20,000 nt of DNA, from IMG/VR virus record IMGVR_UViG_3300008954_000037, one strand, 5' to 3'. The notes under the pieces are model-generated. The model did no database searches and had not been told where the DNA came from. It saw only the letters and a list, made by a program, of their open reading frames with translations. The translations under genes were made by a program, and so were the position numbers. This DNA is from an uncultured virus (IMG/VR IMGVR_UViG_3300008954_000037). Its lineage: Duplodnaviria > Heunggongvirae > Uroviricota > Caudoviricetes. This document shows, in pieces, positions 306 through 20,000 of the stretch (position 1 is the first letter of the stretch; the number at the start of each line of letters is the position of its first letter).

Positions 306-548
306 TCAGTGTTCTTCGCCGTGCATGGCTACGGTGATGTTCCACCCGCACTCCTGTTTCTCCACCAGCAGCGCCTTGAGCTTGTCAGGGTCGAGCGTGG
401 TGCCGGTCTGGAAATTGTAGAATTGGCACAGGTGTTCGATCAGGGCAAGGGCGACGATGTTGATGGGTTTTCTGTCCAGCACCTTGCCGATCTGGTCGTA
501 GAGGTCTTGGATCTCTTTGAGGTCGTCGTCATCCCATTGAAACTTCAT
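306..548 (-). CDS. Hypothetical protein (80 aa)
   Basis: ATGA overlap with recombinase stop; protein-like composition. Confidence 0.7.
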   Translation of the reverse strand: MKFQWDDDDLKEIQDLYDQIGKVLDRKPINIVALALIEHLCQFYNFQTGTTLDPDKLKALLVEKQECGWNITVAMHGEEH

Positions 549-1576
549 AGACCAATCCCCGCTGCGGCGTTGTCATCCCAGAGCCCCTCGTCGCGGATGT
601 AGCGCATGATCATCTCGACCGACCTGTGCCGGGTCTGGCGCATGATGGTGTGGACGGGCTTGCCGGCCTTGGCGGCGGCAGTGGCCAGACCTGCACGGAG
701 GCTGTGCCCAGAGATTCTACCCTGCACCCCGGCCCTCTTGGCGGCCCGCTGGACGACCTTAGCGATGGCCCGTGGGGAGAGGGTCTTGTTCAAGATCTCA
801 CCATTGCGAAGGATGGGCCGAAACACCGGCCCGCTGGCCTCCTTACCACCGACCACGCCCCGCCACGCCAGCAAGGAGCGAACAGGACAGGTAGAGAGTT
901 GGCCGCCGTAAGGGAGCCCGACAACGTGCCCCACCCGCTCCTGATCCGTCTTGGACTTGCGGATGGTGACGCGCAGACCCTCGTCCACCAACTCGATGTC
1001 GCGCCAGCACAGGTCCGAAAGCTCAGAGCGGCGAAAGGCGCCAGCGAAGCCAACGGTCAGCAGTGCCCGGTCGCGGATACTGTAGCTGTTGTAGGTGTCG
1101 ATGAGCGGGGAGGGGGGCGCATTTGGATTCTCAGGGGCCGGGTTGAGGGTCTTGCGACCGATCTCCACCATCAGGCGCAGGTCCACAGGCAAAATCGGAG
1201 AGGCACGATCCTGTTCCCTTCCCAAGGTGCGGCGCACGCCCTTCATCACCCGCCGGACCACCGGGGTCATGCGGGGGCTGTCGTAGCCTTGGACGCCGTA
1301 GGCGTAGGCGATGGAGGACAACGCCCGGTCCACCGTCGAGAGCTTCTTGCCCGCGTCGGCCAGGGTGGCGAGATAGATGGCCACCACCGGGGGCTGGTCG
1401 AACGCGGGGTCGATGTTCCGTGATTGGCACCACACGTCGAAGCGCCCCCAGTCAGATCTGTAGGCGCGTTTGGTCTCGGGCGCCAACTCCGCGTCGAGAT
1501 AGAAGTCTGCTCTGGCCACGTCAGCGATCAACGCCGGGGTGGCCTCGGCAGGCAGTTTGGTCAATTCATTCGTCAT
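545..1576 (-). CDS. Tyrosine recombinase/integrase (Cre/XerC-like, N-terminal core-binding domain)
   Basis: Catalytic motifs RDRALLTVGFAGAFRRSEL (R), KSKTDQ (K), GHSLRAG (HxxR), TRH, RYIR (Y); likely start MTNEL at 1576 after GGGAG. Confidence 0.93.
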   Translation of the reverse strand: MTNELTKLPAEATPALIADVARADFYLDAELAPETKRAYRSDWGRFDVWCQSRNIDPAFDQPPVVAIYLATLADAGKKLSTVDRALSSIAYAYGVQGYDSPRMTPVVRRVMKGVRRTLGREQDRASPILPVDLRLMVEIGRKTLNPAPENPNAPPSPLIDTYNSYSIRDRALLTVGFAGAFRRSELSDLCWRDIELVDEGLRVTIRKSKTDQERVGHVVGLPYGGQLSTCPVRSLLAWRGVVGGKEASGPVFRPILRNGEILNKTLSPRAIAKVVQRAAKRAGVQGRISGHSLRAGLATAAAKAGKPVHTIMRQTRHRSVEMIMRYIRDEGLWDDNAAAGIGL

Positions 1577-1802
1577 CTTCAAGGCTCCCGCATAGCTCAC
1601 ACAATGGATTCTCAGGCACGTCACGGGCCGCGCCAATGGGTACGCCGCACTCCTGGCAGCGCACTACGATAGTTGCAAAACATCCCTGACATAGCACCCC
1701 ACCCCTCACCAAAGGGTATCCGCAGAGGGTACAGGTCCACGCAGGTCGCTGGATGCGGAACGGCGACGGGGGCCTCGTGCGGATGGGGAGGGCTTGGGGC
1801 AC
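1566..1802 (-). CDS. Double zinc-ribbon protein (78 aa)
   Basis: Four CxxC pairs (CTLC, CQGC, CQEC, CELC); overlaps both neighbours. Confidence 0.65.
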   Translation of the reverse strand: MPQALPIRTRPPSPFRIQRPAWTCTLCGYPLVRGGVLCQGCFATIVVRCQECGVPIGAARDVPENPLCELCGSLEDDE

Positions 1803-8455: not shown

Positions 8456-9565
8456 TTACCGACCGAACAACCGCTGCTGCACACCCTGCTCGCGGATTCG
8501 AGACAGCCCGTAGTGGAAGTACGTGCCGTCGATCTCACAGCCGTAGGCACGCCGCTCAAGCTCTCGCACCGCTACGCAGGCCGTGAACAAGCCGCCGAAG
8601 GGTTCCCACACCACGTCACCGGGGTTGCTTGACGCCTCAATGACCCTCCGCACAAGGTCGAGTGGCTTCTGGTTCAGGTGGACAGCCCGCCCGTTGCCCA
8701 CCTTGAACCGCTCCTTGCCCCGAAGGGCAGGTCGCTCCCAGACGTTGGTGACGCCGTGAGGGCAGTTGAAGGTCGAACGCATATCCGTCCATTCCGCTGC
8801 GGTCATCGGGCGAACACCGTCCCGAGAGAAGTAGGGGCGACCTGATGGGTCGCCGTGCTCGTTCGCGTAGTCTGCGAGGGCTTGAAAGGCGTGGGGCGGC
8901 GGGAAGTACCACAGGTGGCCCTGGTCGAGGTACTTGCGAACGGCGGCGTCCTTTACCCCACAAGCCTCATTTGCCTTCCGAAGCGGCAAGCCTGATCGCT
9001 GCCACTCGGACTTCAACCACTTCTTCAACTCGACGCCACCGATTCCCGCCTGGAACACGTACTGGACGCAGACCTCGGTGACGACGGGGAAGCGCCGGAT
9101 CTTGGCCGTGTTGACGTTCCCGGCGATGTGGCCCTTGCCCTTGTTCCAGATGTTGCAGTTGACGTAGCGGAACCCGTACCGCTCCAGCACTGGATGAACG
9201 ACCGCCCAGCCGATCTCCGAGTTCCAGAACCAGAGCGTCGTGGCAGCGGTCGCCTGCTCGGCCCACGCTGCTACGTGGGGCTCGTACCAAGCCGGGAGAT
9301 CGAGGTGGTCAGACGTGTCCCCCTCGAAGCCCAAGACGCCGTAGCCCCCGTCCGACACAATGACCTTGGGCGCAGGCCAGGTCTGGTAGTGGTCGAGCGA
9401 GTCGCCGTGGCTCACGCTGATGAAGTCGTCCGACCAGCGATCCAGTTCGGGGGCCTCTTGCCTGACCACGGCCCGGCCCCGACCCACCGTGCTCGTCGGG
9501 GCTGCCCCCTTTATCGCAGCACGGCGCTCCTCGACCGTCGCCGACTTGTCATTCGTTGGAGTCAC
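8456..9565 (-). CDS. DNA methyltransferase, N4-cytosine/N6-adenine family (beta motif order)
   Basis: Catalytic-like SDGGYG near N-terminus, HLNQKP, C-terminal GDVVWEPFGG...AYGCEID SAM-binding region; AGGAGG before GTG 9565. Confidence 0.88.
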   Translation of the reverse strand: MTPTNDKSATVEERRAAIKGAAPTSTVGRGRAVVRQEAPELDRWSDDFISVSHGDSLDHYQTWPAPKVIVSDGGYGVLGFEGDTSDHLDLPAWYEPHVAAWAEQATAATTLWFWNSEIGWAVVHPVLERYGFRYVNCNIWNKGKGHIAGNVNTAKIRRFPVVTEVCVQYVFQAGIGGVELKKWLKSEWQRSGLPLRKANEACGVKDAAVRKYLDQGHLWYFPPPHAFQALADYANEHGDPSGRPYFSRDGVRPMTAAEWTDMRSTFNCPHGVTNVWERPALRGKERFKVGNGRAVHLNQKPLDLVRRVIEASSNPGDVVWEPFGGLFTACVAVRELERRAYGCEIDGTYFHYGLSRIREQGVQQRLFGR

Positions 9566-9781
9566 CGTTCCTCCTGCTCGTAGCCGGGCCGCTCCTCCTA
9601 GACTTGGCCGCCCAGACCGTCCGGGCAGCGTGAGGACCGATAATAATTCCTTATCGGAGCCAAAAGCAACCCCAAAGGACCCTCTGAGTCGCATTCTGAG
9701 ATTTTTTATTAGCGCGATCACCAGACGCTCAGGACTGGACGATTCTCGCGCGCACGCGCGGGGTATATAGGGTGTCCGGGG

Positions 9782-10382: not shown

Positions 10383-10412
10383 TTGCAATCTGAGAATCGG
10401 CAATGGTATGTT
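10383..10412 (+). promoter_or_regulatory. Putative sigma70-type promoter for DUF932 gene
   Basis: TTGCAA-18 nt-TATGTT with extended TG. Confidence 0.5.
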
Positions 10413-10468
10413 GGTTGGTGGCACATGCTGTGCCCAACAGGCGCCACGGCGCCACCAAGGAGATCACC

Positions 10469-11245
10469 ATGCAACTCATGCTTCACTGCGGCGCCAAGGC
10501 CGCCACCCGCGAAGATGTCCTCGCGGTCCCATGCCCCGAGGCATACACCCTTGGCTCACGCCACAAACCCGTCAGCTACGGCGACATGCTGACCATGATC
10601 GACGACCGCATCGCCCGCATGGGCTTCACGGTCGCTGAGGAGGCGTTCGGCCTCAACAGCAAGGGTCAGCAACTGTTCGGCGTCATGTCCGTCGACACCG
10701 GCATCAAGGACGAGCGGCTTGCCTTCGGCTTTCGACAGTCGTTGAACAAGACCTTCGGTCTCGGCGTATGCGCCGGCCACCACGGTCTGGTGTGCGACAA
10801 CCTGTCCTTCAGCGGCTCGTACTTCACCGCCGTCCGCAAGAACACGGCCAACGCCCACGAGACGTTCCGCCTGATGTTGCTTGACCAGTGCGACCGGGCG
10901 CTGGACAACTTCAACCGGCTGCGCGCCGACTTCAAGTCCTTGGCTTCGGTGCCCGCTGACGAGCGTGAGGGCTTCGCCCTGCTCGGCCAGATGGTCGGTG
11001 ACGACGCGCTCAAGGTCATGGAGTTTTCGGCAGCCCTGGAAAACTGGAAGAAGGACCAGCACAAGCACGGTCGCAACCTGTGGGGCGTCTACAACGCCGC
11101 CACCTGGGGCGCCAAGAGGTCTGCCACCAGCGTGAGGCTCAAGCATCTGCTCGACATCCACCAGTGGTGGGGCAACGAGATGGTCCGTCGCGGCGTCGAG
11201 CCTGTCAGCGTGACGGCCAAGACCGAAGGACTGGAGATCGACTAG
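10469..11245 (+). CDS. DUF932-like phage/plasmid protein
   Basis: MQLMLHCGA...HKPVSY...LFGVM...GFRQSLNKT...GLVCDNLSFSG...NLWGVYNAATW; AAGGAG RBS. Confidence 0.8.
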   Translation: MQLMLHCGAKAATREDVLAVPCPEAYTLGSRHKPVSYGDMLTMIDDRIARMGFTVAEEAFGLNSKGQQLFGVMSVDTGIKDERLAFGFRQSLNKTFGLGVCAGHHGLVCDNLSFSGSYFTAVRKNTANAHETFRLMLLDQCDRALDNFNRLRADFKSLASVPADEREGFALLGQMVGDDALKVMEFSAALENWKKDQHKHGRNLWGVYNAATWGAKRSATSVRLKHLLDIHQWWGNEMVRRGVEPVSVTAKTEGLEID

Positions 11246-13132: not shown

Positions 13133-13357
13133 ATGACTGGCTACACATACGCTGGCGGTCGACACTACACTCGGCTCGCAGAGCGCGTTCTGGAGTACGC
13201 CACGGACAACTCGGATGACGGGGCCTGGGATGAGATCCTCTGCGGAGGGTGGCAGCCCGAGGTCATCGCCTTTGAGTTGGAGCGAGCCAACATCGGCTCG
13301 CTGCCCATGGCGTTGGCCATGTTCCACAAGATCGGCAAGCTGCTCGCAGCGGCTTGA
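13133..13357 (+). CDS. Hypothetical protein (74 aa)
   Basis: GAGGAGGT RBS before MTGYTYAG. Confidence 0.7.
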   Translation: MTGYTYAGGRHYTRLAERVLEYATDNSDDGAWDEILCGGWQPEVIAFELERANIGSLPMALAMFHKIGKLLAAA

Positions 13358-13359
13358 AC

Positions 13360-13785
13360 AATCCGCGCCGTTTGTCAGCGGCTAGTCGGGGGTGGCGAGA
13401 CCCCGATGATGAACCCGGATGACACCGGGAAACAAACGCTGTGGACCCCGCTTGGGGTCGGGCCGGGGAGTCCGTCAGGAGGTAGCGGTGGAGGCGTGAG
13501 CCGGCGAAGCCACCCTCCATCCCCAATTTCAAAACTCAGATTTACAGCAGTGCTGAGGAGGAGTGATTTCAGCCGGCTGATCACCGGATAGTGGGGAGGA
13601 TGTACCCCATGACAAGCCCCTGTAGCAGGGGTACGAACCGCAGGAGCCCGTTGAAGGCAAATCGCTGGAGGGTCACCACGGGGAGATAGCTGCGAGCCTC
13701 GCATGAGGCCGGCACTTCGGGATGTCGTGAGGGGGGTGCGAGTGGAGGGTTTCGGCCCGCTAAGATACTGGCACCCCCCTTCCCC
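13360..13785 (+). ncRNA. Hairpin-dense non-coding block, candidate structured RNA(s)
   Basis: Many stems, e.g. TCGGGG/CCCCGA, CCCGG/CCGGG, GACCCC/GGGGTC, GCCCCTG/CAGGGGT, GCCTC/GAGGC, AGGGGGGTGC/GCACCCCCCT. Confidence 0.45.
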
Positions 13786-13797
13786 CGGATTTCCAAA

Positions 13798-13879
13798 CTC
13801 AGGTCGTGCGGGCGGGCCCTCGGGCTTGTCGTCACCGTAACCAGTCGGTGAGGCCCCGGCTGCCGGGGTCGGCGCTGAG
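13798..13879 (+). repeat. Structured inter-gene element, copy 1
   Basis: CTCAGGTCGTGCG...TCACCG-TAACCAGT-CGGTGA...GGCGCTGAG. Confidence 0.95.
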
Positions 13880-13895
13880 AACAAGGAGGTGCGAG

Positions 13896-14114
13896 ATGAT
13901 TGGCTCTCGCGTGCGTGTGATGATCGCTGAAAACCCCATCGGAGACGGCGTCCTCGTGGACGTGGTCGCCGGGGCTGAGGAGCCCTATGTGGTGCGCTTC
14001 CCCTCTGGCTGCGATGCCGAGGACTGCGACTGCCCCCGCAAGGACGTGCCCGAGACCCTCGGGTTCTTCCCCGAGGAGGTCTTCCCCCTCTACGGCCCTG
14101 TGCCCGAGGGATAG
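13896..14114 (+). CDS. Array gene, hypothetical (72 aa)
   Basis: AAGGAGGT RBS after element; MIGSRVRV... Confidence 0.75.
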   Translation: MIGSRVRVMIAENPIGDGVLVDVVAGAEEPYVVRFPSGCDAEDCDCPRKDVPETLGFFPEEVFPLYGPVPEG

Positions 14115-14193
14115 CCAGAACATGACTCATCAAGGAGGAGGTGTGGAGACGAGGTGGTGGCCTCTGAACGGAAGGGACATCACCCCACAGTCA

Positions 14194-14276
14194 CTCAGGT
14201 CGTGCGGGCGGGCTTCGGCCCGCCACTACGGTAACCAGTCCGTGGCATCCCGGCACCCGCCGGGGTGGGCGCTGAG
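14194..14276 (+). repeat. Structured inter-gene element, copy 2
   Basis: CTCAGGTCGTGCG GGCGGGC-TTCG-GCCCGCC A CTACGG-TAACCAGT-CCGTGG...GGCGCTGAG. Confidence 0.95.
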
Positions 14277-14290
14277 AACAGGAGGATGAG

Positions 14291-14824
14291 ATGATTGAAC
14301 AGGAGTTGCGCGAGCGTATCGCGAAACTGGAGGCGGATTTGGCCCAGGCCAGGGCTTCCCTGAGCTTCTGCGAGAGCCCTGCCGAGAACGAAGACAAGAC
14401 CAGCGACCGCGAGGGCTTCATCGAGTGCCTCATCGGCGGCGAAGACCACATCGGGGACATGCTGCTGCGCGGCCTCTCTGGCTACTGGCTGCGTGGGCTC
14501 GACTTCTACCGATGCAAAAACGGTACGGCCATCGGCTGGCTGGTGGAAGACTTCGACTGCTATGACTTCGACAACCCTTGGCACGCTCGTCATGCTCACC
14601 GAGAGGCCAGGAAGGTCGTTGGGGTCTGGAGGGACAACAACTTCAAGGGCGCCCTCGGGCATCTCCCCGAGGGCACCTACTTCATCGACCGTGAAGTCGC
14701 GCTGCGGGCCTGGGAGGCCGGGACCGAGCGTTGGGGCATAGGCTTCGGTGACGGAGACTGCGACTACAGCGACTGGGACTGGGCAGTCCAGATGGGCGTG
14801 CTGGGAGAGTGTGTCTACGGTTGA
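14291..14824 (+). CDS. Array gene, acidic hypothetical (177 aa)
   Basis: AGGAGG RBS; ends DWAVQMGVLGECVYG. Confidence 0.85.
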   Translation: MIEQELRERIAKLEADLAQARASLSFCESPAENEDKTSDREGFIECLIGGEDHIGDMLLRGLSGYWLRGLDFYRCKNGTAIGWLVEDFDCYDFDNPWHARHAHREARKVVGVWRDNNFKGALGHLPEGTYFIDREVALRAWEAGTERWGIGFGDGDCDYSDWDWAVQMGVLGECVYG

Positions 14825-14832
14825 TGACCACA

Positions 14833-14871
14833 CTCAGGTCGTGCGGGTGGGCTTCGGCCCCGCCGCCACGG
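14833..14871 (+). repeat. Structured inter-gene element, copy 3 (5' half only)
   Basis: CTCAGGTCGTGCGGGTGGGCTTCGGCCCCGCCGCCACGG, then diverges. Confidence 0.9.
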
Positions 14872-14930
14872 GGATCCCAACAACGACTGGCTGCCCGGCC
14901 AGCGGTAGAAAATCGAAACTCAGATTTCAA

Positions 14931-15015
14931 GTCAGGTCGTGCAGGCGGTCCCTCGGGGCCGCCACTACGGTAACCAGTCCGTGGCCCGCGCCATGTCGGC
15001 GCGGTGGGCGCTGAC
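14931..15015 (+). repeat. Structured inter-gene element, copy 4
   Basis: GTCAG...CTGAC compensatory closing stem. Confidence 0.95.
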
Positions 15016-15039
15016 ACAAGAAACATCTAGGAGGATGTG

Positions 15040-15774
15040 ATGCAAACCGACAACAGCAACACCATGCTGAACACCATGCTGGAGGCCATCGTGGCCGTCA
15101 TCCTGAGCATGGTCCCGGTGGACAAGCTCATCGACGCCATCATGGGGCGCGATGACGACGACAAGGCTCAGATCAAGACGGCGCTCGACGGCACCGCTGG
15201 CACCACCCCCTACGGCGCCGACGATAAGGCCGACACCGCCCCTGCCACCTCGGCGGCGGTTGTGGACCGCGTCCTGACCTTGATCGACACCTACCCAGTG
15301 GCAGACCGCAACGGCAAGATGCTCCTCGTCGCTCGCAAGCTGGTCACCCTGATCGGCGGCGCCACGGTGTCCGACCTGCTCACCAAAGAGGAGATCGTCG
15401 AAGCCGCCGAGTGCGCCGGCCTCGCGATGGAGGGCGACGACGCCCTGGACGTGTGCCGAAAGTCTATGGAGTCGGGAGACCGCACCGCAGAGGAGTTCGC
15501 GAACGTGGCACTGGAGTACGACGCAGACGCCGTCGTCGAGGAGGTCCATGGACACCAGGGTGATGCGCTGCTGGAGTTGTTCCAACCCTCCGATGTCGTA
15601 GACCACTTCTGCCACGATGAATTGCGCGGCTGCATGGATGCGGACGAGACCAAGCAGTGGCTCCGCGACAACGGCTACGGCGCCGATGTCGACATCGACA
15701 CCATCCGCTCGGCTGCCGAGGAGTTGGTGGAGTACGCCCAGAGCCTCGTCAACACCGTCGATGAGTACAGCTAG
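15040..15774 (+). CDS. Array gene, highly acidic helical hypothetical (244 aa)
   Basis: AGGAGG RBS; D/E-rich C-terminal half. Confidence 0.85.
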   Translation: MQTDNSNTMLNTMLEAIVAVILSMVPVDKLIDAIMGRDDDDKAQIKTALDGTAGTTPYGADDKADTAPATSAAVVDRVLTLIDTYPVADRNGKMLLVARKLVTLIGGATVSDLLTKEEIVEAAECAGLAMEGDDALDVCRKSMESGDRTAEEFANVALEYDADAVVEEVHGHQGDALLELFQPSDVVDHFCHDELRGCMDADETKQWLRDNGYGADVDIDTIRSAAEELVEYAQSLVNTVDEYS

Positions 15775-15779
15775 ACCCT

Positions 15780-15864
15780 CTCAGGTCGTGCAGGCGGGGC
15801 CTCGGCCCCGCCCCTACGGTAACCAGTCCGTGGCCCGCGCCATGCCGGCGCGGTGGGCGCTGAG
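15780..15864 (+). repeat. Structured inter-gene element, copy 5
   Basis: Begins 6 nt after TAG; full consensus. Confidence 0.95.
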
Positions 15865-15880
15865 AATGTAGGAGGATGAG

Positions 15881-16300
15881 ATGGCATTGCACTGGAATCT
15901 GACGGACATCGACAACCACGAGGAGTTGTGCTGGCGTCCCCACGAGACCGAGAAAAACGAGGACGGCTCGCCGGTTCGCTACATGCGGCTGACCACCGAG
16001 CGGATGATCTGGGCCACCATCGGCGTGGACATCGGATACCTCAAGACGGACAAGATCTGCCGCGAGTTCTATCGCCGCTACTGCGAGGCGTCCTGGGCCA
16101 TGGGACACCCCGTGAACCTGACCCTGGAAGACGTGCTGGCCCACAAGGGTCTGTCCACCAACGTCCACAAGACCAGCGAGGCCGCATGGCGCAAGCGCCT
16201 GGGTCTCATGCTGCGTGACCGGGGCGACCGCCACATGCGGAGCCTCGACCGCAAGGCAAAAGAGGTACAGAAAACCAAGGAGGTGGCAGTGAACCCGTAA
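15881..16300 (+). CDS. Array gene, hypothetical (139 aa)
   Basis: AGGAGG RBS; MALHWN...HKGLSTNV. Confidence 0.85.
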   Translation: MALHWNLTDIDNHEELCWRPHETEKNEDGSPVRYMRLTTERMIWATIGVDIGYLKTDKICREFYRRYCEASWAMGHPVNLTLEDVLAHKGLSTNVHKTSEAAWRKRLGLMLRDRGDRHMRSLDRKAKEVQKTKEVAVNP

Positions 16301-16318
16301 CATCACAACAACATGAAG

Positions 16319-16402
16319 CTCAGGTCGTGCGGGTGGCCCCCTCGGGGGCCATCGCTACGGTAACCAGTCCGTGGGGCCCCGGCTTCCGGGGTCGGCGCTG
16401 AG
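16319..16402 (+). repeat. Structured inter-gene element, copy 6
   Basis: Full consensus. Confidence 0.95.
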
Positions 16403-16419
16403 AATCAAGGAGGTGAGAG

Positions 16420-16884
16420 ATGGAAACCACACAGGGTGCGAAGGAGCCGACCGGGCCCGTCAGCTTTGCTGAGTACGAGCGCATCGCCAGCGAATGGGAT
16501 GCGGAGGCTCACAAGGCCATCAGGCGCGTGAGGCAGGAGACGCGACCCCGCTGCCGCGCTGTCCGCGTCACCGAGATCTGCCTGATGGCGTTCACCGCCA
16601 AGGGCGACGAGGTGTTCCAGCGGATGTACTACGAGATGCCCGAAGGCGAGCAGAGCGACCCAGAATTTTGCTCGGCCATCAGCAGCGACGACCTCACCGA
16701 GTACGTCACCACCGCCATCATGGAGGGCGCTGACTACGTCGAGACCGACGCGCGGGCCGACCCGTACTGGCGCACCCCGCCAGACAACGTCGACCTCATC
16801 GGCGGCGACGACGAGGATGGCTGGTACACCCCCGGCGAGTACATCAACCCGCCCGGTCTGGTCTGGAGCGCGGAGAAGCAGTAG
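16420..16884 (+). CDS. Array gene, acidic hypothetical (154 aa)
   Basis: AAGGAGGT RBS. Confidence 0.85.
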   Translation: METTQGAKEPTGPVSFAEYERIASEWDAEAHKAIRRVRQETRPRCRAVRVTEICLMAFTAKGDEVFQRMYYEMPEGEQSDPEFCSAISSDDLTEYVTTAIMEGADYVETDARADPYWRTPPDNVDLIGGDDEDGWYTPGEYINPPGLVWSAEKQ

Positions 16885-16889
16885 ACCCT

Positions 16890-16971
16890 CTCAGGTCGTG
16901 CGGGCGGGGCTTCGGCCCCGTCGCTACGGTAACCAGTCCGTGGGGCCCCGGCTTCCGGGGTCGGCGCTGAG
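16890..16971 (+). repeat. Structured inter-gene element, copy 7
   Basis: Full consensus, 6 nt after TAG. Confidence 0.95.
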
Positions 16972-16987
16972 AGCAACGGAGAGTGTG

Positions 16988-17380
16988 ATGGGATGTTACG
17001 GACACGAGAGTACCGCCAGCTTCCGCAAGAAGGAGCATGACGGCTACAGCTACTACGACGACGAGAGCGACACGGAGTACGAGATCTGGGCCGGTTACGG
17101 GCGCCGCTGGAAACGCAAGGTCGGCACCATCAAGAAGGTCACAACCTACGACAACGACGACTACTGCGGTGACCACCCCAAAACAAACTGGGATGTGGAT
17201 CTGTGCTGCGAGGAGTTCTACCGCGACAACGGACTGCGCTTCTCGACGCTCGCCAAGGCCAAAAAGGCCGTGAAGCGAGCCCTGGACGGCGGCACGGTAT
17301 GGATCAACAACAGCACCGACCATGACTACCTGTCGTCCATCAACAGCAGGAGGGGTGAACGCATCCACTACGGCGACTGA
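16988..17380 (+). CDS. Array gene, hypothetical (130 aa)
   Basis: GGAGAG RBS before MGCYGHES. Confidence 0.8.
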   Translation: MGCYGHESTASFRKKEHDGYSYYDDESDTEYEIWAGYGRRWKRKVGTIKKVTTYDNDDYCGDHPKTNWDVDLCCEEFYRDNGLRFSTLAKAKKAVKRALDGGTVWINNSTDHDYLSSINSRRGERIHYGD

Positions 17381-17385
17381 CACCA

Positions 17386-17465
17386 CTCAGGTCGTGCGGG
17401 CGGGCTTCGGCCCGCCGCCACGGTAACCAGTCCGTGGGGCCCCGGCTTCCGGGGTCGGCGCTGAG
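17386..17465 (+). repeat. Structured inter-gene element, copy 8
   Basis: Full consensus, 6 nt after TGA. Confidence 0.95.
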
Positions 17466-17479
17466 AACAGGAGGACGAG

Positions 17480-17986
17480 ATGAGCTACCTGCCAGACCAC
17501 TACCGGGCAATCAACCGCGAGTCGGGACACGCCTACAACTGCGCCTGGGGCGGGGGCGCGGACTGCAACTGCGGCAAACACACCTGTCCAGACTGCGGCT
17601 TCTGCGGCGACTGCTTCTGTCACGAAATCGCGGAGGAAGCCAATCAGGCCGGCATGGCGCACGGCGTCGAGGCGGCCAACGAGGTGCGCGGTAGCGGCCC
17701 CAGCGGGCCCCCGGACTGCCCGACGTGCCTGCGGCCCAAGGAGCCGGGGCACCACGGCTGCGTGTGCGTGGACGACGACGCCTGCGAGGGTTGCGAGAAG
17801 CTGACGGGGACCGAGAAGGACTACCACGGCGAGTGGCTCTGTTCCGAGTGTCGTGAAATGGCCTTTGAAGGCTACTGCGACAGTCAGGCAGACAGCAACT
17901 ACCGCGACTACGATGACTCCCCCAGGCCACGCGGAGGCGCGGACCTGTGGTGGGACAAGGAGTCGGGCGAGCCGCGCTGCGGCTGA
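17480..17986 (+). CDS. Array gene, Cys-rich multi-zinc-binding hypothetical (168 aa)
   Basis: AGGAGG RBS; CPDC, CGDC, CPTC, CEGC, CSEC and other Cys motifs. Confidence 0.8.
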   Translation: MSYLPDHYRAINRESGHAYNCAWGGGADCNCGKHTCPDCGFCGDCFCHEIAEEANQAGMAHGVEAANEVRGSGPSGPPDCPTCLRPKEPGHHGCVCVDDDACEGCEKLTGTEKDYHGEWLCSECREMAFEGYCDSQADSNYRDYDDSPRPRGGADLWWDKESGEPRCG

Positions 17987-17993
17987 GATCGAT

Positions 17994-18089
17994 GGCGCAG
18001 ACCTCTACGGGGTGAGGCCCGGACGTGACCGAGGCGGCTCCTCCTCACAGGACCGTCCCGGTCGGGGGTTCAAATCCCCCCTGCGCCCA
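17994..18089 (+). ncRNA. tRNA-like element with abnormal anticodon arm
   Basis: Acceptor GGCGCAG/CTGCGCC, T arm GGGGG-TTCAAAT-CCCCC, D-like CCTC/GAGG stem; followed by T6. Confidence 0.55.
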
Positions 18090-18113
18090 CTTTTTTCGCA
18101 ACTCAGATTTCAA

Positions 18114-18198
18114 GTCAGGTCGTGCAGGCTGCCCCTCGGGGTGGCCCCCACGGTATCGAGTCCGTGGCACCCGACAATTCAGCCGGGTGGGCGCTGGC
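18114..18198 (+). repeat. Structured inter-gene element, copy 9 (divergent)
   Basis: GTCAG...CTGGC closing stem; loop TATCGAGT. Confidence 0.93.
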
Positions 18199-18213
18199 AC
18201 AAGGAGAACAGAG

Positions 18214-18627
18214 ATGGAGAACACTTATCACACCCGCGATTGGACGGGCCCGGTCACAGCATCCAGGCCCCGGCTGGATTTCGGCTACGACGTGGCCGTA
18301 CCCAACGGCGTCAAGGCTGCCTGGGGTGCGCGGGCCATCTTCAAGATGCCCACCTACCCCCACAAGGCGTTCATGGACCTGCTCCCTGACCGTCAGGGTG
18401 TCTGCTGGCTCGACGGGCACAAAGACTCCGTGACGACCCTCACGGAGTTGCTCAACGGGGGCGTCCTGGCCGCCGCGCAGGAGCGGTTCGACGCCCTGGT
18501 CCAGTTGGGCGAGGTCCACACCCGCGAACCCCACGCGGTTGTGGTCTACGAGGACGACGACATCAAGATGGTGGGCAACAGCAACGGCAGCCACGGTTAC
18601 TTCTACGTCGCCGCGTGGCTCAAGTAG
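18214..18627 (+). CDS. Array gene, hypothetical (137 aa)
   Basis: AAGGAG RBS; ends NSNGSHGYFYVAAWLK. Confidence 0.85.
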   Translation: MENTYHTRDWTGPVTASRPRLDFGYDVAVPNGVKAAWGARAIFKMPTYPHKAFMDLLPDRQGVCWLDGHKDSVTTLTELLNGGVLAAAQERFDALVQLGEVHTREPHAVVVYEDDDIKMVGNSNGSHGYFYVAAWLK

Positions 18628-18632
18628 ACCTT

Positions 18633-18714
18633 CTCAGGTCGTGCGGGTGGTCCTTCGGGGCCGCCGCCACCGTAACCAGTCGGTGGGGCCCTGGTTTCCA
18701 GGGTCGGCGCTGAG
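18633..18714 (+). repeat. Structured inter-gene element, copy 10
   Basis: CCACCG/CGGTGG and GGCCCTGG/CCAGGGTC compensatory variants. Confidence 0.95.
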
Positions 18715-18731
18715 AACAGAGGAGGTGAGAA

Positions 18732-19106
18732 GTGCGAGAACAACCCTTCACACAGGTCTGCGTATGGCCCGGCACTCTGATGGGTGTAGCCACGCCGCTA
18801 CAATTTGAGGTCTTCATCAAAGAGGAGTTGGGCGCTCGGGTCGAGTTTCTGGAGGTCATCATGACCAATCCAGATCTCGACGACGACGGCAACCCGGTCC
18901 CCGAGACCGGCGATCGGAGCGACATCTTCTTCGCGGTCCACAGCGAAGACCTCGCCGGATTCGCGGTGCCTCGGCTGGCCTACGGCATCCGCTGGTTTGA
19001 GGACGTTGTGGGCACCCACAACAGCAACGGCACGCTCTCCCTGTACCCATCCCGCGTGATGGACTACTGGACGTGGGATGACGAGTTGAAGCCCAGGGCC
19101 GCGTAG
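18732..19106 (+). CDS. Array gene, hypothetical (124 aa)
   Basis: GAGGAGGT RBS, GTG start; FTQVCVWPGT...RLAYGIRWFEDV. Confidence 0.85.
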   Translation: MREQPFTQVCVWPGTLMGVATPLQFEVFIKEELGARVEFLEVIMTNPDLDDDGNPVPETGDRSDIFFAVHSEDLAGFAVPRLAYGIRWFEDVVGTHNSNGTLSLYPSRVMDYWTWDDELKPRAA

Positions 19107-19112
19107 CGGCCT

Positions 19113-19196
19113 CTCAGGTCGTGCGGGCGGGGCCTCAGCCCCGCTGCCACCGTCAAGTCGGTGGGGCCCCGGCATGTCGCCAGGGTCGGCGCTGAG
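19113..19196 (+). repeat. Structured inter-gene element, copy 11
   Basis: Loop variant TCAAGT; otherwise consensus. Confidence 0.95.
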
Positions 19197-19210
19197 AACA
19201 GGAGAATGAG

Positions 19211-19504
19211 ATGGGAAGCTATCACGCAAGGGTGGACGTTGAAGCGGTCGTGGAAATCCACCTCACCGGCACCGTCAACCTCGACATCGAAGTGGATGAC
19301 GAGGAGGCGGAAGGTTTGTCGAACGATGAGATCTCCGCATTGGTCCACGCCAAGGCCGTCAACGCCATGGACTGCCAGGGCGACTACGAGGTGGAGGAGC
19401 AGATGCTCTACCAGCACTGCCGAGGCGTAGACGTGCGCCAAGGGGAGTACGGCAGCATCTACATCAACAGCGTGGAGGTCGGCAGCGTCGACACGGGGGT
19501 GTGA
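19211..19504 (+). CDS. Array gene, acidic hypothetical (97 aa)
   Basis: AGGAG RBS. Confidence 0.8.
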   Translation: MGSYHARVDVEAVVEIHLTGTVNLDIEVDDEEAEGLSNDEISALVHAKAVNAMDCQGDYEVEEQMLYQHCRGVDVRQGEYGSIYINSVEVGSVDTGV

Positions 19505-19505
19505 G

Positions 19506-19742
19506 ATGGCCAAGTACCAAGTGAGCGGGAATCTGCTGGTCGAGGTCACGGCAGTCGTCGAGGCAAACGACCACAACGAGGCCCTGACAGCCGCCTCCGA
19601 CGAGGTCTCTGTTGCCGAGTACGGCGGTATGGGCAGCGGTTGGGCGGCAGGAGGTATCGAGGGCGACGGGGCCGACGCGACCTGCTACGGGGTCGAGTGG
19701 CAGCACGCCGAGTGCATCGAAGACAACGACGATGCCGAATAG
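19506..19742 (+). CDS. Acidic hypothetical (78 aa)
   Basis: Directly coupled to previous gene; MAKYQV...VEANDHNEA. Confidence 0.75.
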   Translation: MAKYQVSGNLLVEVTAVVEANDHNEALTAASDEVSVAEYGGMGSGWAAGGIEGDGADATCYGVEWQHAECIEDNDDAE

Positions 19743-19965
19743 CTACGCGGGTGAGGTGGCCACTGCACTGCTCTGGCAGCAAGGCTACATCGACCCCATA
19801 GAAGCCCCAACCGACTCCCTGGCCCATGTCATGGAGTTGGTGTCCTCAAAGGGTAGCACGCTCCGCGCCTACCAAGCGTGGGGCGTGCCGCCCGACGAGG
19901 CCGCACGCCGAATCCAGGCAGCGCGGTGGGAGGGCCAAGAGCAAATCCAAAACTCAGAATTGTAG
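19732..19965 (+). CDS. Hypothetical protein (77 aa)
   Basis: Overlaps previous stop; ends at start of element copy 12. Confidence 0.5.
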   Translation: MPNSYAGEVATALLWQQGYIDPIEAPTDSLAHVMELVSSKGSTLRAYQAWGVPPDEAARRIQAARWEGQEQIQNSEL

Positions 19966-20000
19966 GTCGTGCGGGTCGCTGAGAGGCGGCCACGACGGTA
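19962..20000 (+). repeat. Structured inter-gene element, copy 12 (cut by window end)
   Basis: GTAGGTCGTGCG GGTCGC-TGAGAG-GCGGCC A CGACGGTA... Confidence 0.85.

Follow-up and report, generated by a model that had tools for sequence, protein, structure and literature searches.

Results

Repeated elements punctuate an array of small genes

The window analyzed here, a 20,000-nt stretch of DNA from an uncultured virus (Caudoviricetes; IMG/VR record IMGVR_UViG_3300008954_000037), carries an integrase gene at 545-1636 and, ~12 kb away, a gene array in which nearly all small genes are preceded by an element of ~83 nt that folds into a four-way junction. The elements spread over 13.8-20 kb of the window, all on the plus strand (Table 1). 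Exact copies of their signature AGGTCGTGC occur 12 times between 13801 and 19964, likewise always on the plus strand; allowing up to one mismatch retrieved 24 matches against 7.95 expected, a count reached in none of 200 shuffles. Ten copies are intact and measure 74-79 nt from AGGUCGUGC to GGCGCU; the copy at 14836 is truncated, and the window ends within the one at 19964. A covariance model scanned along the window scored the complete copies at 84.9-99.7 bits and the truncated one at 16.6 bits, with 14.8 bits at the next best place. An earlier reading made from the sequence only (hereafter, the sequence-only reading) had described copy 2; its closing strands CUCAG and CUGAG lie at 14194-14198 and 14272-14276, respectively. 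Downstream of the truncated copy lies the remnant of a gene 3' end, followed by a promoter-like motif.

Table 1. Coordinates of the element copies, of the parts of copy 2 and of the translation signals that follow it
Feature	Start	End	Strand	Remarks
Copy 1, P1 to P1	13798	13879	+	97.4 bits; then SD and a 72-aa ORF starting at 13896
Copy 2, the one first reported	14194	14276	+	93.5 bits
Copy 2, closing stem, 5' strand	14194	14201	+	outer CUCAG, inner GUC
Copy 2, junction strand GUGC	14202	14205	+	invariant; alignment
Copy 2, hairpin A, GGCGGGC UUCG GCCCGCC	14207	14224	+	variable sequence, covarying pairs
Copy 2, hairpin B	14226	14245	+	6-bp stem, conserved loop UAACCAGU at 14232-14239; counterpart of twister-sister P4-SL4
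Copy 2, hairpin C	14246	14267	+	sequence and loop variable; first pair G-C or C-G
Copy 2, 3' strand	14268	14276	+	GGC, bulged G (14271), then CUGAG; alignment
SD AGGAGG (14280-14285) and ATG (14291)	14280	14293	+	downstream of copy 2; start of a 177-aa ORF, 14291-14824
Copy 3, truncated	14833	14876	+	16.6 bits; only 5' strand, hairpin A and start of hairpin B
Copy 4, GUCAG/CUGAC	14931	15015	+	directly 3' of promoter-like motif 14908-14927
Copy 5	15780	15864	+	repeat pattern and covariance model
Copy 6	16319	16402	+	repeat pattern and covariance model
Copy 7	16890	16971	+	repeat pattern and covariance model
Copy 8	17386	17465	+	repeat pattern and covariance model
Copy 9, GUCAG/CUGGC	18114	18198	+	directly 3' of promoter-like motif 18091-18110
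Copy 10	18633	18714	+	repeat pattern and covariance model
Copy 11, 6-nt loop variant UCAAGU	19113	19196	+	repeat pattern and covariance model
Copy 12, cut by window end	19961	20000	+	P1 of the UGUAG type, shared with relatives L254 and L261

The proteins encoded between the copies are largely featureless in database terms. Pfam, PHROGs and NCBIfam gave no match above cut-off for the 10-11 array proteins searched; the ORF at 18214-18627 yielded a sub-threshold match to CbeA_antitoxin (17.8 bits, cut-off 27). The protein encoded at 15881-16300 has just 11 relatives among 5.8 billion clusters, none of them named, and no relative was found among viral contigs. Many conserved ORFs with no assigned function are carried by both related islands. 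Relatives of other genes come from diverse taxa: those of the methylase occur on Nostoc and actinobacterial plasmids, the DUF932-like protein has relatives on a Planctomyces plasmid, and the Atlas neighbors of an oxidoreductase are mostly from Pseudomonadota.

Each copy lies between a stop codon, 3-11 nt upstream, and a downstream Shine-Dalgarno (SD) sequence, at a distance of ~3 nt. Among the 41 distinct copies with flanking sequence, from the window and its relatives, the SD core begins a median of 3 nt past P1, all 41 are followed within 30 nt by the start of an ORF of 50 aa or more, and a stop triplet occurs 3-11 nt upstream in 28. Some copies, namely those at 14931 and 18114 and further ones in the relatives, follow a promoter-like motif directly. 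Since the element is found both internally and right behind such motifs, every cistron, first or internal, begins with the fold. This placement, together with a multi-helix junction and invariant junction nucleotides immediately 5' of the SD, could be that of a riboswitch-like RNA sensing a ligand and gating translation of each gene. However, the SD stays outside P1 in every copy, no conserved alternative pairing that would hide or free it was detected, and the occurrence of at least 10 copies before unrelated ORFan genes fits metabolite control poorly. We thus regard ligand sensing as highly improbable.

A covarying four-way junction on the sense strand

RNAalifold applied to the 10 complete window copies predicted a four-way junction of 30 base pairs, 10 of them with compensatory changes. 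For a larger alignment, 47 matches (10 from the window and 37 from related marine metagenome contigs) were reduced to 42 distinct sequences. In these, 95.3% of the paired cells held a base pair, compared with 82.0% in shuffles, both sides had changed in 20 of the 30 pairs, and any of the observed measures was reached in 0 of 500 shuffles. As the copies are paralogues, the shuffle control overstates their independence; the sturdier control, in which partners were slid along the alignment, left only 35-50% of the cells paired. The fold is also specific to one strand: the plus strand folded better in 40 of 40 copies, by 11.4 kcal/mol on average, and the 1214 cells included 149 G-U against 10 A-C combinations. 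This strand specificity indicates that the element acts as RNA, and the G-U wobbles bear out the sequence-only reading, which had taken them as a sign of RNA in proposing a covarying four-way junction on the plus strand.

The alignment further details how the parts of the fold evolve. In the outer closing stem CUCAG, the first three pairs covary, reading CUC/GAG in 32 of the 42 rows, GUC/GAC in three, and GUC/GGC, UGU/ACA and AAC/GUU in one each, whereas the A-U and G-C pairs beneath them are invariant; these two pairs, the inner GUC/GGC stem and the bulged G are kept in 39-40 of 40 rows. The stem variants GUCAG/CUGAC and GUCAG/CUGGC, previously noted in copies 4 and 9, and the GUC/GGC extension around the bulged G were thus all recovered. 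Apart from this bulged G, the arms contain no internal loop. Hairpin A stays paired despite its variable sequence and is flanked by a correlated pair of positions (G/A...G/C/A); hairpin C is variable, and the details listed for both hairpins before are present in the alignment. Hairpin B takes the three reported stem forms, CUACGG/CCGUGG, UCACCG/CGGUGA and CCACCG/CGGUGG. Its loop, closed by G-C, is UAACCAGU in 29 of the 42 sequences, UAUCCAGU in six, UCAAGU in four and UAUCGAGU in three, a set that includes the three forms anticipated (UAACCAGU, UAUCGAGU and UCAAGU). The hairpin stems vary, and both AGGUCGUGC (40 of 40 rows) and GGCGCU (41 of 41) stay constant, which extends the invariance first seen in the window copies. 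A mutual-information scan for a pseudoknot disclosed no new helix, only lineage-like correlations at the junction.

These data bear on two explanations that dispense with a function of the RNA. One is a role of the DNA itself, which might shuffle gene cassettes by recombining at the element (a site or hot spot, in the manner of integron attC) or might form a structure as single-stranded DNA. Indeed, the window and its 93.7-kb relative do not have the same gene order between copies, one truncated copy is accompanied by a gene remnant, contigs of three sequencing runs join position 17383 to 14192 across 33 shared bases, and an integrase is encoded in the window. As in integrons, structured repeats separate small promoter-less ORFs with no assigned function near an integrase gene, and cassette order varies between relatives. 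Nonetheless, the 17383-14192 join may have arisen in assembly, by a path through the 33-base repeat, and homologous recombination between any 80-bp repeats would shuffle genes anyway. Selection of the structure on the sense strand only and the fixed SD distance, which has no reason at the DNA level, also argue against this role. Typical attC sites work as folded single-strand DNA, with a structure tied neither to the coding strand nor to an RBS; they feature R and L core boxes and a GTTRRRY-type core, and form an imperfect hairpin with extrahelical bases; inspection by eye of copies and alignment revealed neither such boxes nor such a core, and the element is a four-way junction with RNA-type strand bias. 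We consider a DNA-level role very unlikely. The other explanation, a selfish or neutral intergenic repeat of the REP or MITE kind devoid of function of its own, would account for a multi-copy sequence confined to intergenic gaps and tied to rearrangements. Yet the orientation is always the same, placement is always from stop to SD at fixed distances, four helices are kept by compensatory changes, and 15 core nucleotides remain constant even though the islands have diverged, with gene identities of only 68-83%; we give this possibility little credence.

The element is absent from Rfam 15

Rfam 15 yielded no match at gathering score in the window and 61 kb of its relatives. When one copy was searched as a 106-nt stretch at E<=10, only chance-level hits of 7-12 bits to unrelated families were returned, and no known ribozyme was among them. 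We also compared the element by eye with the hammerhead core, which GUC and CUGAG had suggested; the core did not fit, and Rfam returned no hammerhead match. A tRNA-like or RNase P-like RNA was discarded too, given that ARAGORN found no tRNA in the window, the copy tested matched no tRNA family of Rfam, and the last arm carries no T-loop. A blastn comparison of positions 13500-20000 with phage and plasmid records gave no match. The element is a well-supported compact structured RNA that is absent from Rfam 15.

Pattern searches for relatives were screened with the covariance model. The pattern CAGGTCGTGC..GGCGCTG hit at least 120 stretches in viral contigs; 80 loci were scored, all at or below 19.1 bits. 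Stretches retrieved with TCAGGTCGTGC..AGTC..GGCGCTG (four viral, at least 120 from genomes; 84 scored) were dismissed as chance matches, all of them scoring 20.1 bits or less. A stricter pattern had no match in viral contigs and 22 stretches at 21 loci in metagenome contigs. Nineteen of these loci were screened; the remaining two, L252 and L258, lie on one contig with L251, L253 and L261 and overlap them. Eight of the 19 (L245, L246, L248, L257, L259, L262, L264 and L265) lacked a model match at E<=0.1. The family has thus been seen in a handful of marine metagenome contigs, as paralogous copies.

Resemblance to the twister-sister ribozyme

The sequence-only reading had likened the element to a twister-sister (TS) ribozyme and had named a covariance-model search as the check on that link, with missing model similarity to refute it. 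We compared both RNAs using the Rfam RF02681 alignment, real TS from phage contigs and the description of the TS structure by Zheng 2017. The TS strings quoted in that reading are real, the Rfam consensus being GCAAG-GCC ... G-GUGCAAGCC-c ... GGC-GCUCAU, and the shared architecture held feature by feature. Model similarity did not: RF02681, with a family threshold of 34 bits, scored 75-84 bits on the real TS from phage contigs and failed to match the element, whether the cut-off was the gathering score or E<=10 and also with a single copy searched as the 106-nt stretch. A TS model built here and run with filters off reached 6.0-7.3 bits on three of the 10 copies, with noise matches of up to 11.5 bits. 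Judged by these scores, the element is not a member of the TS family. In the reverse test, models of the element aligned real TS in register and on the TS strand in 23 of 31 copies, which are closely related and do not amount to 23 independent trials, at 4.8-14.5 bits (best E, 0.04). Scores at 20 decoy loci were at most 5.1 bits, and antisense or out-of-register matches at the same TS loci rose to 10.4 bits; we take the in-register alignment as suggestive, not significant. TS were also sought in Clostridia, with none found among three and then 150 genomes.

The likeness resides in the four-way junction and in what surrounds it. In both RNAs, the hairpin bearing the conserved loop is the middle one of three, set between two variable ones, and a 3-bp stem leads into the junction, GCC/GGC in TS (P2) and its equivalent, the inner GUC/GGC, in the element. 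An extruded G sits on the 3' strand beside conserved G-C and A-U pairs; in the model alignments, GUC/GGC and the bulged G of the element fall on GCC/GGC and G59 of TS. The 3' strand reads GGCGCU and the 5' strand AG-G[U/C]C in the two families. The loop of the second hairpin agrees in part, in the form G-U..A-G-U-C, represented by GUGCAAGUC in TS and by GUAACCAGUC or GUCAAGUC in the element: compared with TS SL4 (G-UGCAAGU-C), it retains the U at the start and the A-G-U at the end and diverges between them in both sequence and length; the UCAAGU form lacks just one G. Residues at these positions make up the T2 contact of TS, which Zheng 2017 assign to A8-U61, G9-C60, G59, C12-G56, G35 and U36 and describe as a docking contact that holds two helical stacks side by side in the solved structure.

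The main difference concerns the cleavage site. The 3x3 internal loop L1 of TS, located between P1 and P2 with GCA opposite CAU, the C-A cut site and an extruded A, is replaced in the element by three Watson-Crick pairs; these replacement pairs covary, in agreement with the swap of the cut-site loop for a paired stem originally proposed. From GCAAG opposite GCUCAU, only AG and GCU are preserved. Further differences are the junction strand, two variable nucleotides in TS and an invariant GUGC with no TS counterpart in the element, the 5' half of the conserved loop, and the length of the hairpins (6-9 bp in the element, 3-6 bp in TS). According to Zheng 2017, A7, G5 and C62-A63 belong to T1 and the cut site. 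With covarying Watson-Crick pairs in place of the loop, self-cleavage at the TS site would not be expected.

The genomic niche is shared as well. The phage records examined contain 12 TS copies in five records, always on one strand within a record; a stop triplet, whose frame was not checked, lies within 20 nt upstream of all 12, and an SD plus ATG within 60 nt downstream of eight. Both RNAs thus form co-oriented multi-copy arrays between stop and ribosome binding site (RBS) in operons of mobile elements, although the SD follows the element after ~3 nt and TS after 20-35 nt. A tblastn search of the array proteins against the 12 TS-bearing phage loci returned nothing below E 0.4. From this resemblance in sequence and fold, we infer that the element and TS may share common descent.

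Discussion

Our tentative preference, held at somewhat less than even confidence, is that the element is a cis-acting, TS-related intercistronic mRNA element of ~83 nt, non-cleaving at the TS site and serving as stabilizer or insulator. It would be part of the polycistronic mRNAs transcribed from a gene array of marine mobile elements, with a four-way-junction core that matches the lower half of the TS ribozyme: the invariant A-U and G-C pairs, the bulged G, the GUC/GGC stem into the junction and the G-U...A-G-U-C loop on the second hairpin. Lacking the TS 3x3 loop with its C-A scissile step, and also the extruded A that docks into a hairpin loop, it would mark the start of each cistron by folding, downstream of the preceding stop codon and ahead of the SD, into a compact block that resists nucleases. 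Such a block would probably keep the RBS free of upstream sequence and might protect or define message ends, in the same niche that self-cleaving TS occupy in phage operons. Nine invariant junction nucleotides are more than a plain stabilizer or insulator would call for; such invariance is found more typically in catalytic cores or specific binding sites.

Both of these options were weighed. The RNA could still cleave itself, as a new ribozyme class or variant evolved from, or ancestral to, the TS scaffold, having kept the T2 module and with its active site moved, for instance to around GUGC and the bulged G, and would then cut the mRNA at each cistron boundary. It shares its niche with TS arrays, its core is invariant at the nucleotide level beside freely covarying stems, as ribozyme cores are, and the invariant GUGC is new relative to TS. 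According to a review, such contexts seem to require efficient self-cleavage whichever the motif, and some motifs from them are reported not to have cleaved under the conditions tried. On the other side, the residues that Zheng 2017 connect with TS catalysis (G5, C62-A63 and A7) are absent and their positions are taken by covarying Watson-Crick pairs, the search at E<=10 returned none of the known ribozyme families, and the arms lack any internal loop other than the single bulged G. Self-cleavage is, in our view, unlikely, yet it deserves serious consideration.

A binding site for a protein appears rather unlikely. The partner could be an endoribonuclease of the island or the host that processes the operon at each copy, in the way of Csy4 or RNase III, or else a regulator that controls translation of all array genes together. 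Recognition by such a protein would fit the invariant nucleotides, which a rigid scaffold displays, and the spacing of ~3 nt to the SD in every copy, and candidates might hide among the many conserved ORFs without annotated function of both related islands. No RNA-binding or nuclease family was recognized, however, in either the window or the 28 kb examined of a relative, and the RNA-RNA tertiary contact of TS already accounts for the conserved nucleotides.

The element family combines the docking core and the niche of TS with a helix, itself under selection, in place of the cleavage loop, and may help to show what TS-type ribozymes are for. If it does not cleave, it would constitute a natural separation-of-function variant, and exchanging it with an active TS would tell the contribution of cutting from that of a folded block. 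If it is a natural, catalytically dead TS that still serves in the ribozyme niche, the essential function of such ribozymes in mobile elements would be something other than cleavage. Conversely, if it does cleave, it would represent a new ribozyme class or a variant with a relocated active site. In high-GC hosts, the element might also be put to use to insulate an RBS by natural means.

Intercistronic elements that process or insulate messages are known from other systems, such as the RNase III sites that separate genes of phage T7 and the ribozyme or Csy4 insulators engineered before an RBS. They likewise place a structure immediately 5' of the RBS wherever one cistron of a polycistronic message gives way to the next; unlike the present four-way junction with its invariant core, they are simple long hairpins or active ribozymes. 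Structured RNAs beside ribozyme-associated genes that did not cleave in tests, the RAGATH motifs, provide another precedent, and RAGATH families are included in Rfam 15. The element differs from them in that no Rfam 15 family matches it at E<=10 and in its specific resemblance to one ribozyme scaffold. Short motifs of ~13 bp with optional inverted repeats, the start-associated sequences of cluster K mycobacteriophages, occur immediately 5' of many start codons; these also are repeats preceding many starts within one phage genome, at a scale far from that of an 83-nt covarying multi-helix fold. The RNAs beside ribozyme-associated genes that did not cleave in tests resemble the element in their conserved structure and in occupying intergenic regions of mobile elements, of the kind that also host self-cleaving ribozymes.

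A covarying four-way junction repeated in the gene array

The 9-mer AGGTCGTGC occurs exactly 12 times in the window, always on the plus strand and between 13801 and 19964; searches tolerating one mismatch found 24 matches against 7.95 expected, a number attained in 0 of 200 shuffles. Ten complete copies of the element were delimited, and both the numbering of the sequence-only reading (copy 4 at 14931, copy 9 at 18114) and all its sequence details agree with the window sequence. A covariance model built from these 10 copies (R1) scored them at 84.9-99.7 bits, and its best match in the rest of the window with filters off (16.6 bits) was the truncated copy (see table). A pattern scan of metagenome contigs followed by the covariance model revealed relatives on nine further contigs, among them one of 93.7 kb (L253/L261) with ~17 copies, and yielded 47 matches in window and relatives, 42 of them distinct.

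RNAalifold predicted for the 10 window copies a four-way junction of 30 pairs, with compensatory changes in 10. Among the 42 distinct sequences, both sides changed in 20 of the 30 pairs, double changes were present in all four helices, and 95.3% of paired cells could pair versus 82.0% in shuffles; the observed covariation and pairing measures were reached in none of 500 shuffles. The copies are paralogues of a few related islands, so that this shuffle control overstates their independence, a weakness from which the slid control is free: when the 3' partners were displaced by 1-3 columns, 35-50% of cells remained paired and the covariation score, 0.368 in register, was 0.040-0.095. The proposal of a covarying four-way-junction RNA was thus borne out by the RNAalifold fold, the two-sided changes and the slid controls. 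AGGUCGUGC was invariant in 40/40 rows and GGCGCU in 41/41, and the hairpin-B loop read UAACCAGU (29), UAUCCAGU (6), UCAAGU (4) or UAUCGAGU (3). The two nucleotides flanking hairpin A also correlate (G with G in 22 and A with C in 13 of 41), as they do with the first hairpin-C pair (G-C or C-G), which reflects either two element sublineages or a junction contact; columns 14, 54 and 75/111 of the alignment (A2) correspond to 14206, 14225 and 14246/14267 of copy 2.

With RNA parameters, the plus strand was more stable than its complement in 40/40 copies (by a mean of 11.4 kcal/mol), and with DNA parameters in 38/40, while the paired columns held 149 G-U versus 10 A-C cells among 1214. The G-U excess and the greater plus-strand stability indicate that selection acts on the structure as formed by the genes' sense strand, and hence in mRNA, as had been proposed from the sequence. 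Descriptions of the motif were absent from the literature searched on twister-sister variants, non-cleaving relatives and phage contexts, a search with most subscription journals outside its scope, and from the available parts of PMC6765202 and PMC5737381. The element is a genuine structured RNA family with strong support, and it has apparently not been described before.

Features of the window, with strand and remarks
Feature	Position	Strand	Remarks
Tyrosine integrase	545-1636	-	
N6/N4 DNA methyltransferase	8456-9721	-	N-terminal half without assignment
DUF932-like gene	10403-11245	+	recognised only via the relative's copy, E 1e-6
AAACTCAGATT motif	2140, 4834, 7617, 9693, 9793, 10355, 10387, 11316	-	
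AAACTCAGATT motif	13532, 13795, 14916, 18099, 19950	+	
Structured stretch, ~240 nt	13560-13790	+	between promoter-like motif 13532 and first element copy
Element copy 2	14194-14276	+	CUCAG-GUC-GUGC, three hairpins, GGC-G-CUGAG
Truncated element copy	14833-14876	+	ends after first hairpin
tRNA-like fold	17994-18087	+	between end of gene 17480-17986 and promoter-like motif
Small gene	18214-18627	+	sub-threshold CbeA-antitoxin-like C-terminus
Element copy cut by window end	19961-	+	

Position of the element ahead of array genes

In the 41 distinct copies with flanks, the Shine-Dalgarno (SD) core starts a median of 3 nt past the closing stem, and an ORF of at least 50 aa begins within 30 nt downstream in every case. 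Upstream, 28/41 have a stop triplet at a distance of 3-11 nt, and several of the copies without such a stop directly adjoin the 3' side of a conserved AT-rich motif, AAACTCAGATT (extended form rAAWYCrAAACTCAGATTy). Since copies stand behind either stop codons or this motif, every array cistron, first or internal in its operon, starts with the fold. With up to two mismatches, the window contains 14 occurrences of AAACTCAGATT, where 1.6 were expected; those left of 11.4 kb lie on the minus strand, those right of 13.5 kb on the plus strand. Because this switch follows gene orientation, the motif probably serves as a promoter or 5' leader signal, perhaps the island's own; 13300-20000 yielded no sigma-70-like promoter. 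The array genes are small ORFans matching no Pfam, PHROGs or NCBIfam family.

Relation to the twister-sister ribozyme

The sequence-only reading likened the element to a twister-sister ribozyme (TS) scaffold, a link that held for shared residues and arm order but not for model similarity. At gathering score, neither the window nor 61 kb of relatives matched any Rfam 15 family. At E<=10, searches of the 6.5-kb array and of one 106-nt copy found no TS match to the element and, for other families, nothing beyond chance-level hits (7-12 bits) to unrelated ones on that copy. For direct comparison, viral contigs were searched with a TS pattern derived from residues named in the available text of Zheng et al. 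2017 (PMC5660989). Rfam, applied to 20 of the 80 listed pattern loci, confirmed six ribozymes in five of them (75-84 bits), and a stricter regular expression retrieved 51 distinct TS cores. The Rfam TS consensus runs P1, GCAAG, GCC, 2 nt, hairpin, 2 nt, stem with loop GUGCAAGCC, hairpin, GGC, GCUCAU, P1; the element runs P1 (3 bp), AG, GUC, GUGC, hairpin, 1 nt, stem with loop GU[AACC/AUCC/AUCG/C]AGUC, hairpin, GGC, G, CU, P1 (3 bp). Both share the AG, the 3-bp stem, the arm order, the loop ends G-U...A-G-U-C and GGCGCU, whereas the element lacks the 3x3 loop and carries a junction GUGC absent from TS. Tertiary contact T2 of the TS crystal structure comprises, in the accessible text of PMC5660989, A8-U61, G9-C60, the extruded G59, the C12-G56 pair, G35 and U36, and each of these residues has an identical counterpart in the element.

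Covariance models detected this likeness faintly. A TS model (R2), trained on a low-diversity set picked by our own pattern, scored 3/10 element copies at 6.0-7.3 bits with filters off, below noise of up to 11.5 bits. Conversely, R1 with filters off, run over 30 TS loci (31 copies) and 20 decoy loci (pattern matches that are not TS), gave in-register full-length alignments on the TS strand in 23/31 copies (4.8-14.5 bits, best E 0.04) against three decoy matches, all <=5.1 bits; antisense or out-of-register matches at TS loci reached 10.4 bits. The model from all 47 matches (R3) rendered the same picture (best 13.0 bits). These comparisons suggest a resemblance specific in its details, albeit without statistical significance. 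Common ancestry or a shared tertiary module is fairly probable, and we would class the element as a new variant allied to the TS scaffold, outside the TS family as defined.

TS ribozymes in phage contigs occupy the same niche. Five TS-bearing phage records, searched whole, contained 12 copies (1-4 each, on one strand per record), spaced 0.5-1.9 kb in the four records with more than one. A stop triplet, counted in any frame, lay within 20 nt upstream in 12/12, and an SD with ATG within 60 nt downstream in 8/12. TS and element thus share the stop-RNA-SD layout, with a spacer to the SD of 20-35 nt in TS versus ~3 nt in the element; no protein similarity was found between these loci and the window array. 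Co-oriented TS arrays were seen in IMG/VR loci L267, L277/L278, L333/L334 and L389-L400, the densest with four copies in 4.6 kb, each just past a stop triplet and mostly 20-35 nt before an SD with ATG. The consulted portions of the TS literature do not state this layout.

Candidate functions

The TS 3x3 loop holds A7 (contact T1), G5 and the C62-A63 scissile step, according to the accessible text of PMC5660989, and A63U abolishes cleavage, according to that of PMC11620745. At the A63-equivalent position the element has a covarying pair (U-A 36, A-U 2, G-C 1, U-G 1); with a covarying Watson-Crick helix at the cut site, the canonical TS cut should not be possible. We tentatively favour, at somewhat below even confidence, a non-cleaving, TS-related 5'-UTR module. 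From its position, the RNA would begin every cistron as a compact four-way junction that the retained T2 contact holds together; it would keep the A-rich SD region clear of GC-rich sequence on the upstream side and form a boundary that is structured and resists nucleases. However, nine invariant junction nucleotides, including the GUGC that TS lacks, exceed the needs of such a role, and because of this invariance two rivals stay in consideration: a ribozyme whose active site has moved, which is rather unlikely, and a specific site for a protein, either endonuclease or translational regulator, which is unlikely. Whether the element cleaves is the decisive point.

Rearrangement and genomic setting

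The element repeats clearly promote rearrangement. Compared with window 13500-20000, the 93.7-kb relative is collinear in the left flank and carries homologous genes in another order inside the array (window genes 4, 6, 3, 7, 5 by blastn). The stretch 14833-14927, which comprises the truncated copy, the apparent 3' end of a lost gene whose final bases are common to relatives L249 and L261, and a promoter-like motif, is a recombination or deletion scar within an element. In contigs from three DNA runs of two studies, 17383 is joined to 14192 over 33 bases common to copies 8 and 2, linking the end of gene 16985-17380 to copy 2 and gene 14291-14824; the joint may reflect a population variant in which the cassettes are ordered differently, or else the assembly may have passed through the repeat. 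Most contigs of those runs stop at element copies. Such rearrangement would fit a DNA-level role of the element, but the strand bias and the constant distance to the SD make this reading very improbable.

The surroundings of the array (see table) point to a mobile element; the relative also has a weak, sub-threshold helicase/SNF2-like match, and two studies contain window DNA in their marine and seawater metagenome runs. The tRNA-like fold, which ends ahead of a U run, combines a 7-bp acceptor-like stem with a GGGGGUUCAAAUCCCCC T-arm; ARAGORN called no tRNA, there or elsewhere in the window, and Rfam matched the fold weakly (mascRNA 25.5 bits, tRNA-Sec 22.1 bits). A similar T-arm lies just upstream of the element copy at 1340-1429 (minus strand) of relative L250. 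The stretch ahead of the first copy is 80-93% identical in two relatives, versus 68-83% for neighbouring genes, and is predicted to be highly structured, with two compensatory pairs among three sequences only; a leader is one possible role, a separate non-coding RNA another.
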